Sequence record: OZ335960.1
DNA: 64,000 nt
Direction: 5' to 3' (one strand)
Source of the DNA: a phage
Part shown: piece by piece, positions 3,961-62,639 of the stretch
Layout of the letters: each line of letters opens with the position of its first letter
Numbering within the stretch: position 1 is the first letter of the stretch
The notes under the pieces: model-generated
Told to the model about the DNA's origin: nothing
The model's input: the letters and a program-made list of their open reading frames with translations, nothing else
Database searches by the model: none
Position numbers and translations under genes: made by a program

Positions 3961-4452
3961 ATGTTTGTAGATGATGTAACACGAGCGTTTGAATCTGGTG
4001 ATTTTGCTCGACCTAACTTATTCCAAGTAGAAATTTCTTATCTTGGACAAAATTTTACGTTTCAATGTAAAGCCACTGCTTTACCAGCTGGTATTGTAGA
4101 AAAAATTCCAGTCGGTTTTATGAACCGTAAAATTAACGTAGCAGGCGATCGTACATTCGATGACTGGACTGTTACAGTAATGAACGATGAGGCACATGAT
4201 GCTCGCCAGAAGTTTGTTGATTGGCAAAGCATTGCCGCCGGGCAGGGGAACGAAATTACTGGTGGAAAACCAGCAGAGTATAAAAAGAGCGCTGTTGTTC
4301 GCCAATATGCTCGTGACGCTAAAACTGTAACAAAAGAAGTCGAAATTAAAGGCCTGTGGCCTACTAACGTGGGTGAACTTCAGTTAGATTGGGATTCAAA
4401 CAATGAAATCCAAACCTTTGAAGTAACTCTTGCTCTCGATTATTGGGAATAA
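3961..4452 (+). CDS. 19: Tail tube protein gp19
   Basis: 163-aa ORF, T4 gp19 length and synteny. Confidence 0.93.
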   Translation: MFVDDVTRAFESGDFARPNLFQVEISYLGQNFTFQCKATALPAGIVEKIPVGFMNRKINVAGDRTFDDWTVTVMNDEAHDARQKFVDWQSIAAGQGNEITGGKPAEYKKSAVVRQYARDAKTVTKEVEIKGLWPTNVGELQLDWDSNNEIQTFEVTLALDYWE

Positions 4453-4484: not shown

Positions 4485-6109
<1,625 letters not shown>

Positions 6110-12834: not shown

Positions 12835-14253
12835 TTATGGATAGGTATAGATGATACCAGTTTCTAAAGCAGTTTTATGAATGATGTATCCATTACGTGA
12901 TTCTTGAACATCAACTTCTGGATAGTCTTTCATCATCTTCTGAAGAGTGTAACGATGCAGGTAGTATTTACTATCTGGATCTTCAGTTTTCCAATCTTTA
13001 CCTTCTTCGGTCATTTTTTGGATTTCATCCATAACCCACCAACCGCACCAGATATAAGCTGAAGTACGATGTGGAAGAGGATGAACATAAGGCAATTCAC
13101 CTTCTGGTTCCGGAGCAACTTTATCAGTTACCTGAACTTGGCCTGTTGCTTTAACTGTTTTACTATCATAGTCGGTTGCTGTAACGACAGCAGTAACTTC
13201 AATAGTTTGACTTCCAATAGATGAGGTGTCAACGGTGTATACGTTAGTTGACACTTCTACAGGAGAAGAATCTTTCTTCCATGAATAAGTAATTTGTGCT
13301 GCTTCAGGTGCTCCAGTAACATTAGCCGTAAATGTAGCCGAAGCATCTTGCTGAACGTTAATAGAAGGAGGAGTCAATGTAACCTGTGGATTCATTGTTT
13401 TCTTATTAACTGTCAATGATACTTCATTAGAAGTAACTTCCTTTTCATTGTAATTTTCTGCGGTTACTTGCGCTACACATTTAATTCTTTTTACTCCACT
13501 TGTAGTTGGAGTATAGTTAAATGTAGAGTTAGTTTCTCCACCAATTTGAGAATCATCTACATACCATTTATATGTAGCAGCCGCTCCATCAGGTTGAGAA
13601 GCTAAGGCAGCAGTAAATTGAACTGGGGTTCCAATTACTCCAGCTGAAGGACTATTAGGAGTTACAGCTAAGGTAGTTGTCTGCGTCTTTTTATTAACTG
13701 TCAGTGACACTTCATTAGAAGTAACGCTCAGTGCATCATAATCTGTCGCAGTTACTTGAGCTATGCACTTGATTTTTTTAACTCCACTTGTGGTAGGAGT
13801 GTAATTGAATGTAGCAGAAGTTGCTTCGCTTACAGGAGAACCGTCAACGTGCCATTGATACGTGGCAGTTGCGCCCGATGGCTGTGAAGCTAAGGCAGCA
13901 GTAAATTGGACAGCTGTTCCGATTACTCCAGCTGGAGGACTAGCAGGAGTTACTGCCAAGGTAGTTGTTTGTGTTTTATTTTTAACTGTGATAGTTGTAC
14001 TAATTTCTGCTGTTTCAGGTTCAGATTCTGCAACTTGATTGGTTGCAACTACTTTAATAGTCTTTTGACCGGCAGGTCCTTTTAGTACATAACTAAAAGT
14101 TGCTGACGTTTCTTCCTGTGGAGCGTCGTCTACAGTCCAAGCATATGTAATAGGTCCATCTCCAGTTTGACCACTGGGTGTAGCAGTAAACTGCTGAGTC
14201 TGATCTATAACTCCAGTAGGTGTTTTAGGAGTTATATCAACTGTAAAAGCCAT
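12835..14253 (-). CDS. hoc: Hoc, highly immunogenic outer capsid protein, with one extra Ig-like domain
   Basis: 472-aa ORF; N-terminal MAFTVDITPKTPTGVIDQ and C-terminal capsid-binding region (WCGWWVMDEIQK) as in T4 Hoc (376 aa as I recall); contains two consecutive ~96-aa near-identical Ig-like units. Confidence 0.92.
   Translation of the reverse strand: MAFTVDITPKTPTGVIDQTQQFTATPSGQTGDGPITYAWTVDDAPQEETSATFSYVLKGPAGQKTIKVVATNQVAESEPETAEISTTITVKNKTQTTTLAVTPASPPAGVIGTAVQFTAALASQPSGATATYQWHVDGSPVSEATSATFNYTPTTSGVKKIKCIAQVTATDYDALSVTSNEVSLTVNKKTQTTTLAVTPNSPSAGVIGTPVQFTAALASQPDGAAATYKWYVDDSQIGGETNSTFNYTPTTSGVKRIKCVAQVTAENYNEKEVTSNEVSLTVNKKTMNPQVTLTPPSINVQQDASATFTANVTGAPEAAQITYSWKKDSSPVEVSTNVYTVDTSSIGSQTIEVTAVVTATDYDSKTVKATGQVQVTDKVAPEPEGELPYVHPLPHRTSAYIWCGWWVMDEIQKMTEEGKDWKTEDPDSKYYLHRYTLQKMMKDYPEVDVQESRNGYIIHKTALETGIIYTYP
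13402..13977 (-). repeat. Tandem direct repeat of ~288 bp (2 copies) encoding duplicated Hoc Ig-like domain
   Basis: Hoc residues ~93-188 and ~189-284 are near-identical (KTQTTTLAVTP...NEVSLTVNK twice); the DNA is visibly similar between the two copies. Confidence 0.85.
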
Positions 14254-18790: not shown

Positions 18791-19540
18791 ATGGCAAACA
18801 TTATTCGTTGTAAATTACCAGATGGTGTTCATCGTTTTAAACCATTTACGGTAGAAGATTATCGAGATTTTTTGTTAGTTCGAAACGATATAGAACATCG
18901 GTCACCACAAGAACAAAAAGAAATAATTGCTGATTTAATTGCTGATTATTTTGGAGACTATCCGAAGACTTGGCAACCATTTATATTTTTACAGGTATTT
19001 GTAGGGTCAATAGGCAAAACTAAAGTACCAGTCACATTTGTATGCCCAAAATGTAAAAAAGAAAAGACAGTTCCATTTGAAATATATCAAAAAGAATTAA
19101 AGGAACCTATTTTTGACGTAGCTAATGTTAGAATTAAATTAAAGTTTCCTTCTGAGTTTTATGAAAATAAAGCAAAGATGATTACTGAAAATATTCATTC
19201 TGTCCAAGTAGATGAAATGTGGTATGATTGGAAGGAAATTAGCGAATCGAGTCAAATAGAACTTGTTGATGCCATCGAGATAGAAACATTAGAAAAAATT
19301 CTTGATGCAATGAATCCTATTAATTTAACATTGCATATGTCATGTTGTAATAAGTATGTAAAAAAATACACTGATATAGTAGATGTGTTTAAGCTATTAG
19401 TTAATCCAGATGAGATATTTACTTTTTATCAAATTAATCACACACTTGTAAAAAGTAATTATAGCTTAAATTCAATAATGAAAATGATTCCTGCTGAGCG
19501 CGGATTCGTATTAAAACTGATTGAGAAGGATAAACAATAA
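18791..19540 (+). CDS. 51: Baseplate hub assembly protein gp51
   Basis: 249-aa ORF, position 26/51/27 as in T4. Confidence 0.88.
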
Positions 19541-59675: not shown

Positions 59676-61125
59676 ATGGCTACTTTAAAACAAATACAAT
59701 TTAAAAGAAGCAAAACCGCAGGAGCACGTCCTGCCGCTTCAGTATTAGCCGAAGGTGAATTGGCTATAAACTTAAAAGACCGCGTACTTTTTACTAAAGA
59801 CGACCAAGGAAATATCATTGATCTTGGTTTTGCTAAGGGCGGTAGTATTGACGGGAATGTTATTCATATAGGAAACTATAATCAAACTGGTGATTATACT
59901 TTAAATGGCACCTTCACTCAGACGGGTAATTTTAATTTAATCGGTATTGCTCGAGTAACTCGCGATATTATTGCCGCCGGGCAGATTATGACCGAAGGCG
60001 GAGAACTTATTACAAAAAGTTCAGGTACATCACATGTTCGTTTTTTCGATAGCAATAGCCGCGAGCGCGGAATCATTTATTCTCCTGCTAATGATGGATT
60101 AACTACACAAGTACTTAATATCAGGGTTCAAGACTACGCCGCTGGTAGCGAAAGCACCTATGCATTTTCAGGCAATGGCCTATTTACTTCACCTGAAGTA
60201 TCAGCATGGAAATCTATGTCAACTCCTCAGATTTTGACCGATAAAGTTATTACAGATGGGAAGAAGACAGGCGATTATGACATCTATTCATTAGCAAATA
60301 ACACTCCATTGGCAGAAAGCGAAACGGCTATTAACCACCTCCGTGTTATGCGAAATGCCGTAGGATCTGGTATATTCCATGAAGTTAAAGATAACGACGG
60401 GATAACCTGGTACGCCGGTGACGGATTAGATGCCTATCTTTGGTCGTTTACCTGGTCCGGTGGATTGAAAGCAGGCCATTCTATTTCTATAGGTCTTCCG
60501 GGCGGCTCTAAAGGATATTCTGAATTAGGGACTGCTTCGATTGCTCTTGGTGATAATGATACTTGGTGATAATGATACTGGTTTAGTCCATGGCGGTGAT
60601 GGCCGAATCAATATGGTTGCCAATGGTATACATATTGCAAACTGGGGCGCAGGCTATCAATCTCATCCTGGGCTTTGGGATTCAACCGGTGCTTTTTGGA
60701 CAGAAGTTGGAAGAGCTATCGTTTCTCATGGGCATCTCGTTCAGGCAAATGATAGTTATTCAACGTTTGTCCGTGATGTTTATGTCCGTTCTGATATTCG
60801 CGTTAAAAAAGACCTCGTTAAATTTGAAAATGCTTCTCAGAAGCTTTCTAAAATTAACGGTTACACTTATATGCAGAAGCGAGGCCTAGATGGAGAAGGT
60901 AATCAGAAATGGGAACCTAACGCTGGTTTAATTGCTCAAGAAGTTCAAGCTATTTTACCAGAATTAGTTGAAGGCGACCCTGATGGCGAAGCTTTACTTC
61001 GTTTGAACTATAACGGTGTAATTGGTTTAAATACAGCTGCAATCAATGAGCATACCGCAGAAATTGCAGAACTTAAATCAGAAATCGAAGAACTTAAAGC
61101 ATTAGTTAAATCGTTGTTAAAATAA
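59676..61125 (+). pseudogene. 37: Long tail fibre distal subunit gene 37, frameshifted by a 16-bp tandem duplication; C-terminal intramolecular-chaperone-like domain
   Basis: N-terminus MATLKQIQFKRSK...AINLKDR...DLGFAKGG is gp37-like; reading frame stops at 60567-60569 just after the duplicated ttggtgataatgatac; the +1 frame continues without stop to 61125 and ends ...SDIRVKKDL...GLIAQEVQAILPELV...[19 protein letters not shown], a motif I associate with tail-fibre intramolecular chaperones. Confidence 0.8.
60547..60578 (+). repeat. Perfect 16-bp tandem duplication (ttggtgataatgatac x2) inside gene 37
   Basis: Read directly from sequence; 16 is not a multiple of 3, so the second copy shifts the frame. 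Confidence 0.95.
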
Positions 61126-61144
61126 TAAGAGGGGCTTCGGTCCC

Positions 61145-61951
61145 TTGGAGGTTTATATGGCAGTTGAAGGACCGTGGGTAGGATGGTCTGCAGTAGTTAA
61201 TACAGGACAAAATTGGATGGGTGGTGCGGCCCAACGATTAAGAATGGGCATTCCGTTCTGGATGAGTAATATGATAGGTCGATCCGTTGAAGTAATTCAC
61301 ACACTTGGAGCAGACCATAACTTCAATGGTCAATGGTTCCGAGATAGATGTTTTGAGGCAGGTAGTGCACCCATAGTGTTTAATATCACAGGAAATTTGG
61401 TATCATATTCTAGAGATGTTCCTTTATTCTTCATGTATGGAGATACACCAAATGAATATGTTCAGTTGAATATTAGCGGTGGAGCTCATATGTGGGGCAG
61501 AGGTGGACAAGGTGGGTGGACTCATTCTGGTGGAGATGGTAATGGTCAACAGGGTGGACATTGTATTCAAAATGACATTGGTGGTCGATTAAGAATTAAT
61601 AATGGTGGAGTAATTTGTGGCGGCGGTGGCGGCGGTGGCGGCATCGCTTATCGTCCTCACTCTGGTGCAAACTGGCAAGATATTGGTGGCGGTGGAGGAA
61701 GACCATTTGGCCCAGGAGGTGGCGGTGGTTATTCAGGAGGTGCTGCTTCTTATGACGGTCCAGGAGGCGGTTATAATTATGGTAATGCTCACTCTGGACA
61801 GGGTGGTGATGCTGGCGGAAATGGACAAAATGCCTGGTATGATGGTGGTAAAGTTCTAAAAGTTGGCGCTGGCGGGGCTGCAGGTTATGCTGTAATAGGG
61901 TCTGCTCCAACATGGCAAAATGTTGGAATAATATATGGTCCAAGAGTATAA
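61145..61951 (+). CDS. 38: T2-type receptor-recognising adhesin gp38 (glycine-rich motifs)
   Basis: 268-aa ORF; [25 protein letters not shown] and poly-Gly motifs ([19 protein letters not shown]) as I recall for T2/K3-type gp38; true start may be ATG at 61157. Confidence 0.85.
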
Positions 61952-61982: not shown

Positions 61983-62639
61983 ATGGCAGCACCTAGAATA
62001 TCATTTTCGCCCTCTGATATTCTGTTTGGTGTTCTAGATCGCTTGTTCAAAGATAACGCTACCGGGAAAGTTCTTGCTTCCCGGGTAGCTGTCGTAATTC
62101 TTTTGTTTATAATGGCGATTGTTTGGTATAGGGGAGATAGTTTCTTTGAGTACTATAAGCAATCAAAGTATGAAACATACAGTGAAATTATTGAAAAGGA
62201 AAGAAATGCACGCTTTGAATCTGTCGCCCTGGAACAACTCCAGATAGTTCATATATCATCTGAGGCAGACTTTAGTGCGGTGTATTCTTTCCGCCCTAAA
62301 AACTTAAACTATTTTGTTGATATTATAGCATATGAAGGAAAATTACCTTCAACAATAAGTGAAAAATCACTTGGAGGATATCCTGTTGATAAAACTATGG
62401 ATGAATATGCAGTTCATTTAAATGGACGTCATTATTATTCCAACTCAAAATTTGCTTTTTTACCAACCAAAAAGCCTACTCCCGAAATAAATTACATGTA
62501 CAGTTGTCCATATTTCAATTTGGATAATATCTATGCTGGAACAATAACCATGTACTGGTATAGAAATGATCATATAAGTAATGACCGCCTTGAATCAATA
62601 TGTGCTCAGGCGGCCAGAATATTAGGAAGGGCTAAATAA
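61983..62639 (+). CDS. t: Holin T
   Basis: 218-aa ORF (T4 holin length); single N-terminal TM segment (VAVVILLFIMAIVWY) and large periplasmic domain. Confidence 0.93.
   Translation: MAAPRISFSPSDILFGVLDRLFKDNATGKVLASRVAVVILLFIMAIVWYRGDSFFEYYKQSKYETYSEIIEKERNARFESVALEQLQIVHISSEADFSAVYSFRPKNLNYFVDIIAYEGKLPSTISEKSLGGYPVDKTMDEYAVHLNGRHYYSNSKFAFLPTKKPTPEINYMYSCPYFNLDNIYAGTITMYWYRNDHISNDRLESICAQAARILGRAK

Follow-up and report, generated by a model that had tools for sequence, protein, structure and literature searches.

A T2/S16-type distal tail-fibre end in a Tequatrovirus genome: a gp38 adhesin of predicted OmpA specificity downstream of an interrupted gene 37

Results

The gene 37-38-t locus

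The window analysed here, a stretch of 64,000 nucleotides from the phage sequence record OZ335960.1, belongs to a Tequatrovirus genome whose DNA is about 95-96% identical to that of known members, no record being identical to it. Look-ups by exact sequence found neither the 264-aa gp38 nor the 297-aa fragment of gene 37 on record. The genes at the distal end of the long tail fibre follow the order 37-38-t, as in T2, T6, RB32, ELT1, FL08, AV119, HY01 and Ec_MI-02. The locus comprises the following features:

59676-60569, + strand: 5' part of gene 37, a 297-aa ORF ending in ALGDNDTW followed by TGA (60567-60569); from the ORF and 95% identity to Ec_MI-02
60547-60578, + strand: perfect, frame-shifting tandem duplication of 16 nt, two copies of TTGGTGATAATGATAC; from the sequence and TRF (period 16, 100% match)
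60565-61125, + strand: 3' part of gene 37 in the +1 frame, 186 aa, with the predicted gp38 docking tip, the cleavage motif and the S74 chaperone; from Pfam and homologues
61129-61146, + strand: C(UUCG)G tetraloop hairpin AGGGGCUUCGGUCCCU in the 37-38 spacer, just before the ribosome-binding site of gene 38; from folding
61157-61951, + strand: gene 38, assigned to the T2-family gp38 tail-fibre adhesins, 264 aa plus stop; from the ORF, Pfam, PDB and homologues
61983-62639, + strand: gene t (holin), which lies next downstream and anchors the synteny; Pfam Phage_holin_T at E=2e-117 and 99% identity to T4 t

The ORF list places gene 38 on the + strand at 61145-61951, with a length of 268 aa when a TTG is taken as the start; this was the length given in the original prediction. 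The ORF is present and intact; its length is to be corrected to 264 aa, a start difference of 12 nt. Indeed, the gene probably starts at the ATG at 61157 (CDS 61157-61951), because a Shine-Dalgarno sequence GGAGG (61148-61152, + strand) lies 5 nt before this codon and because all the annotated homologues begin there. The GGAGG is identical in the 37-38 intergenic region of the relatives, and MAV.GPWVG is found at the N-terminus of every annotated gp38 homologue, from the equivalent ATG. A scan for terminators and promoters around gene 38 gave nothing above background. Small ORFs in other frames within the gene, at 61596-61943 (- strand) and 61617-61859 (+ strand), are taken by us to be by-products of the repeats in its GGN-repeat part.

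The interruption of gene 37

Gene 37 is split over two ORFs that do not share a frame, one at 59676-60569 and the other made of the rest, up to 61125. With respect to Ec_MI-02, 1253 nt (about 418 codons) are absent, and more are absent with respect to the other relatives; the blastn breakpoints fall at 60562/60563 in the window and at 3961/5215 in the Ec_MI-02 locus. The gp37 of close relatives is 900-1109 aa long (900 aa in Ec_MI-02), and all the relatives carry two (L/I)GDNDTG motifs, the first at aa 292 and the second at aa 715-924, 423-632 codons apart. In the window, two copies of this motif abut as the 16-nt tandem, and the removal of one TTGGTGATAATGATAC copy yields an open, in-frame gp37 of 477 aa. 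This tandem is the only out-of-frame case among the perfect short tandems of the window; the other perfect one, of 12 nt at 18924, is in frame within an intact ORF. A further TRF tandem, of 9 nt (61617-61642), lies inside gene 38. No copy of the exact junction string occurs in the viral, metagenome or genome contig collections, and a degenerate version of the single-copy, in-frame junction gave no match in viral contigs.

Does this break belong to the phage or to its assembled sequence? An assembly or joining artefact is the most likely reading, and we consider it probable, because both 16-nt copies are kept, out of frame, as would result from butt-joining through an untrimmed overlap of 16 nt. 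A real out-of-frame deletion of 1253 nt would leave gp38 intact but orphaned, in a defective phage or in a non-viable variant of a mixed population, and we hold it to be unlikely. It takes at face value the frame that stops at 60567-60569, the rest of the gene in the +1 frame and the codons absent with respect to the closest relative, and it can appeal to the fact that a contiguous short gene 37 occurs in 0 of 50,697 phage records; but the two copies abut exactly, whereas if the motifs had recombined, a single copy would remain and the deletion would be in frame and 1269 nt (423 codons) long, the other tail-fibre genes examined (34, 35, 36 and 38) and t are all intact, and a phage without long tail fibres is not normally propagated and sequenced. 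We give little credence to a third reading, in which the 16-nt duplication would be a local error superimposed on a real in-frame deletion. If this were true, the phage would carry a natural "mini" distal half-fibre, made of a 477-aa gp37 that has lost 423 shaft residues, with an intact docking tip, its S74 chaperone and an OmpA-type gp38 cap.

Two ways in which the interrupted gene could still be expressed were considered and rejected. Programmed +1 frameshifting at ACU UGG UGA is discarded, as the site has no slippery P-site codon and tRNA-Trp cannot re-pair on GGU; furthermore, three in-frame stops follow and the arrangement is found in no relative. If gp37 were instead split and its 3' ORF translated on its own, the sole start available is a TTG that lacks a ribosome-binding site, and no covalent bond would join the two halves. 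Gene 37 as written cannot encode a functional distal half-fibre. As a matter of quality control, the gene 37 locus is in doubt for any host-range inference or fibre engineering made from the genome as written.

The tail-fibre module and the gp37 tip

The original prediction placed the adhesin in an otherwise T4-like tail-fibre module. This description fits the proximal proteins, since gp34 and gp35 are 93-95% identical to those of T4 and T6 and gp36 is 81% identical to that of T4 (82% to T2), but it fails at gp37: its first 300 aa or so are only 39% identical to T4 (95% to aa 1-296 of Ec_MI-02 gp37), and its C-terminal 186 aa have no T4 match by blastp. These 186 aa are 90-92% identical to the C-termini of FL08, AV119, ELT1 and HY01 and 29% identical to that of T2. 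They contain a Peptidase_S74 domain ("chaperone of endosialidase") of 111 aa (Pfam, E=4e-13), preceded by a predicted cleavage motif, DVYVR^SDIRVKK, with its Ser codon at 60790, on a fragment whose frame differs from that of the 5' part of the gene. This motif aligns with the cleavage sites DLNVS^SDRRIKK of S16 and DVYIR^SDGRLKI of the fPS phage (PMC7917993). Judged from its sequence, the whole distal end, gp37 tip and gp38 together, is of the T2/S16 type. The T2-type gp38 arrangement predominates in the T4 superfamily, of which T4 itself is the exception (PMC3157838).

The gp38 attachment domain (aa 1-45; window 61157-61291, compared with 4501-4640 of the RB32 locus) shares 91-96% identity with the HY01/FL08/ELT1 type and 58-60% with the RB32/T6 type, and its type tracks that of the gp37 C-terminus. 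The OmpA-type specificity domain is common to the HY01/FL08/ELT1-type and RB32/T6-type backgrounds. This sharing of one specificity domain by two attachment and tip types clearly illustrates the module shuffling already known for gene 38. As a separate observation, the protein encoded by the gp37 C-terminal fragment (60565-61125) is only 88-92% identical to any relative, below the values found for gp34-36, gp38 and t; it represents a separate allele of the tip that docks gp38 and of the S74 chaperone.

Anatomy of gp38

The window gp38 was aligned with those of ELT1, Ec_MI-02, FL08, AV119, HY01, T2, T6 and S16, and the alignment was repeated with RB32 added, so that the variable segments could be mapped. 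Loops A-E were transferred from the PP01 structure through the PP01-like HY01 row, on the assumption that HY01 numbering equals PP01 numbering; PP01 loop A corresponds to W119-I124 (PMC12892980). The resulting parts, all on the + strand, are:

61157-61276, + strand: N-terminal attachment domain (aa 1-40), predicted to dock on the gp37 trimer tip; Pfam Gp38_N, with the role taken from S16 (PMC7917993)
61319-61393, + strand: middle-region motif (aa 55-79), before the glycine-rich domain; from the alignment
61469-61948, + strand: C-terminal specificity domain (aa 105-264), in which hypervariable loops alternate with conserved motifs rich in glycine; from the alignments
61517-61540, + strand: predicted receptor loop A (aa 121-128, WTHSGGDG); transferred from its PP01 counterpart
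61649-61678, + strand: predicted receptor loop B (aa 165-174), holding R166 and H168-A171; from the PP01 mapping and PMC12032242
61721-61732, + strand: predicted receptor loop C (aa 189-192), which this subtype has in a very short form; transferred from its PP01 counterpart
61775-61789, + strand: predicted receptor loop D (aa 207-211, NYGNA); from the PP01 mapping
61835-61855, + strand: predicted receptor loop E (aa 227-233, WYDGGKV); from the PP01 mapping

The N-terminal domain carries Trp at positions 7, 10, 20 and 35, of which W7, W20 and W35 do not vary among the nine aligned sequences; the docking role of the conserved tryptophans on gp37 is taken from S16 (PMC7917993). The 25-residue motif quoted in the original prediction is found at aa 55-79 (nt 61319-61393). 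Presented there as a conserved N-terminal region, it is kept in T6, RB32, HY01, FL08 and AV119, whereas T2 and S16 do not conserve it. In the PP01 structure, a beta-helix domain precedes the polyglycine-II (PGII) sandwich (PMC12892980).

Glycine accounts for 27% of gp38 and for 37% of aa 110-264, with runs of eight (155-162), five (177-181) and five (187-191) residues and many GG or GGG, and the GC content of the DNA of the specificity domain (61469-61948) is 50% versus 36% for the whole window. The expected poly-glycine motifs separated by variable segments are thus borne out across the nine gp38 sequences, in which the glycine blocks are invariant and the segments between them vary. The invariant elements are GRGG, a run of 7-8 Gly and GGGGGRP.G.GG, together with Gly columns further on and, at the C-terminus, P.W.NVG.I (WxNVGxI); the variation is concentrated between the glycine blocks and differs by subtype. 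The window gp38 matches the layout of five motifs rich in glycine (GRMs) with four hypervariable segments (HVSs) described by Trojet et al. (PMC3157838), and its arrangement is like that in the structures of S16 and PP01, with their ten PGII helices and five loops (PMC7917993, PMC12892980). A PGII sandwich fold with distal loops is strongly implied by homology to the solved chains 6F45_D and 9V85_A. A single-sequence AlphaFold2 model was uninformative (mean pLDDT 31.9, pTM 0.21).

Family of gp38

The hmmscan search matched the profile GP38 (PF05268, "Phage tail fibre adhesin Gp38") with E=8.8e-68 and 228.8 bits against a cut-off of 25, completely, over positions 1-218 of 218 and aa 45-264 of the protein; Gp38_N (PF21721) covers aa 1-40 with its positions 1-40/40 (E=6.1e-21, 74.6 bits, cut-off 25). 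Among the solved structures, S16 gp38 (PDB 6F45_D) aligns over aa 1-261 with 51% identity (E=2e-51), and the receptor-binding domain (RBD) of PP01 gp38 (PDB 9V85_A) over aa 37-264 (E=1.9e-72), the 9V85 entry being an sfGFP fusion of this domain (PMC12892980). By tblastn, gp38 homologues are present in 846 phage records, the closest being ELT1 (97.7%), then SH7, vB_EcoM_F1 and CE1 (97.0%) and KIT03 and Ec_MI-02 (96.6%), followed by wV7 (95.8%), FL08 (95.1%), AV119 (94.3%) and RB32 (89.8%).

With high confidence, then, the ORF 61157-61951 can be assigned from these matches to the receptor-binding adhesins gp38 of T-even (Tequatrovirus) phages, in the T2/T6/S16 family and the RB32/AV119/FL08 subtype ("OmpA type 1"). 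The database comparison with the T2 family, significant for both Pfam GP38 and 6F45_D, agrees with the original prediction of a T2-family adhesin rather than a T4-type chaperone. The label "T2-type" holds for the family and is misleading as to kinship, the window gp38 being nearer to RB32 (90%) and T6 (63%) than to T2 (44%).

Discussion

The model that we favour for this distal fibre combines the action of gp37 and gp38. The C-terminal Peptidase_S74 domain of gp37, an intramolecular chaperone, would cleave itself off at the predicted DVYVR^SDIRVKK site and expose the docking tip, on whose trimer the N-terminal domain of gp38 would dock, a role taken from S16 (PMC7917993). The C-terminal half of gp38 would fold as a polyglycine-II sandwich built of the conserved glycine-rich motifs, from the distal face of which five variable loops (approximately aa 121-128, 165-174, 189-192, 207-211 and 227-233) would project. 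Their target would be the extracellular loops of OmpA, to which LPS may add its part as in RB32, and this reversible binding of the long tail fibre would be the step that sets the host range. The role of gp38 as host-range determinant presupposes an intact gp37, which is absent from the sequence as written.

OmpA is likely the primary receptor of the window gp38, because its specificity domain is near-identical to those of the tested OmpA adhesins of RB32, FL08 and AV119. Over aa 105-264, the identity amounts to 96% with RB32, 95% with AV119 and 94% with FL08, versus 56% with T6, 54% with HY01 (close in sequence to the OmpC-binding PP01 gp38, 9V85) and 46% with both T2 and S16; with ELT1 and Ec_MI-02 included, the range is 94-97% on one side and 46-56% on the other. 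The domain therefore groups with the tested OmpA-dependent adhesins and not with the Tsx, OmpC or FadL/OmpF types. In RB32, OmpA is required and LPS composition matters, and the transfer of a 400-bp HVS segment of its gene 38 into RB5 transferred the OmpA/LPS specificity (PMC3157838). FL08 and AV119 do not infect an ompA deletion mutant; this dependence was established on MG1655, and the two phages form the broad-host-range "type 1" OmpA group (PMC12032242). The receptor of T6 is Tsx and that of T2 is FadL (PMC3157838), and S16 uses OmpC (PMC12892980). The location of receptor specificity in the variable segments of gp38, as originally proposed, thus finds support in experiments on near-identical proteins, namely the RB32 HVS swap (PMC3157838) and the work on FL08 and AV119 (PMC12032242).

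The residues predicted in silico to contact OmpA in FL08 and AV119 are R165, V166-A170, R181, D217 and R262 (PMC12032242), and their equivalents in the window are R166, P167-A171, R182, D218 and R263, D218 lying near loop D as the equivalent of FL08 D217. R166, H168, S169, G170, A171, R182, D218 and R263 are all conserved; position 167 is P in the window, RB32 and ELT1 and V in FL08 and AV119. It is quite improbable that the same adhesin recognizes a receptor other than OmpA (e.g. Tsx, OmpC, OmpF or FadL) or has a shifted range of OmpA variants. Such a shift would draw on three substitutions within or close to loops, namely Y228 (in loop E) and I258, unique to the window among the six closest sequences, and P167, which differs from FL08 and AV119, and there are precedents: single HVS substitutions can alter gp38 specificity, one to three residue changes switching the receptor between PST and T6 and between SV76 and T2 (PMC3157838). 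The OmpA "type 1" adhesins are, moreover, phylogenetically nearer to the Tsx binders than to OmpA "type 2" (PMC12032242). However, identity in the specificity domain is 94-97% with three adhesins whose dependence on OmpA was tested independently and only 46-56% with the Tsx, OmpC-type and T2 representatives, every predicted contact residue is conserved, and P167 is shared with the OmpA-dependent RB32. The prediction of OmpA as receptor would be useful for host-range prediction and for the design of phage cocktails.

That the ORF encodes instead a T4-type gp38, a transient assembly chaperone of gp37 absent from the virion, with the receptor site on gp37, has a negligible probability: the ORF does sit where gene 38 is expected, between gene 37 and t, and some relatives' records bear the label "distal long tail fiber assembly catalyst", but blastp detects no similarity to T4 gp38 (NP_049864.1, no match at E<=1e-3), the Pfam matches are to an adhesin family with no chaperone family in the scan of gp38, the PDB matches are receptor-binding proteins, and the gp37 C-terminus has no T4 gp37 tip match and carries its own S74 chaperone. 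The appropriate annotation of gene 38 as an adhesin is "long tail fibre adhesin gp38 (receptor-recognising protein)".

The comparison with known systems places the window gp38 as follows. The RB32 protein (ABI95068.1), 90% identical overall and 96% over aa 105-264, has the same loop sequences, including RPHSGA, and the same position between gene 37 and t, on a different gp37 C-terminus (34% identical to that of the window). The FL08 and AV119 proteins, "type 1" OmpA adhesins of Lutz et al. 2025 (PMC12032242), are 95% and 94% identical over their full length and share the attachment-domain type and the type of gp37 C-terminus (91-92%); they differ by 13-15 substitutions, including P167V, D200V/G201A, N207Q and Y228S, and by a one-residue indel at 108, and their gene 37 is intact (1104-1109 aa), unlike that of the window. 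The gp38 of ELT1 (UAW07552.1), SH7, vB_EcoM_F1, KIT03, wV7 and Ec_MI-02, 95.8-97.7% identical over 264 aa, occur in identical synteny, and that of ELT1 shows six differences (E4T, W10S, N172R, G221A, Y228H and I258A); no receptor data for these six phages were found in the literature searched.

The T2 and T6 proteins, classical examples of receptor recognition (FadL/OmpF and Tsx, respectively), share the family, the length (262-265 aa), the GRM/HVS layout and the gene position, at 44% and 63% identity, but their loops are unrelated to those of the window. S16 gp38 (6F45 chain D) and the PP01 RBD (9V85), which define the attachment domain, the beta-helix, the PGII sandwich and the five loops (PMC12892980, PMC7917993), both come from OmpC binders whose loop sequences differ from those of the window. 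T4 gp38, a protein of 183 aa that is not a virion component, has only its gene name and its position after gene 37 in common with the window gp38, the receptor site of T4 being the gp37 tip. The gp38 family, its fold, the GRM/HVS design, the way in which the N-terminal domain co-varies with the gp37 tip, and the subtype's receptor have all been published; gene 38 of the window is an allele, at 98% identity, of an adhesin subtype already described, an ordinary feature that is correctly annotated.

Two further features of the window deserve mention. The 37-38 hairpin folds with -11.1 kcal/mol (z = -1.3 versus shuffles, not significant alone) and is conserved at the same site in T4, T2, HY01, ELT1, FL08 and Ec_MI-02; in the window, a C-to-T change converts one of its G-C pairs into G-U. 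On the - strand, a 472-aa ORF (12835-14253) has repeated segments, Ig-like in look, and contains a 288-nt tandem repeat in two copies at 13403-13989 with 77% identity. This ORF may encode a Hoc-type outer capsid protein, which would have one repeat more than T4 Hoc.
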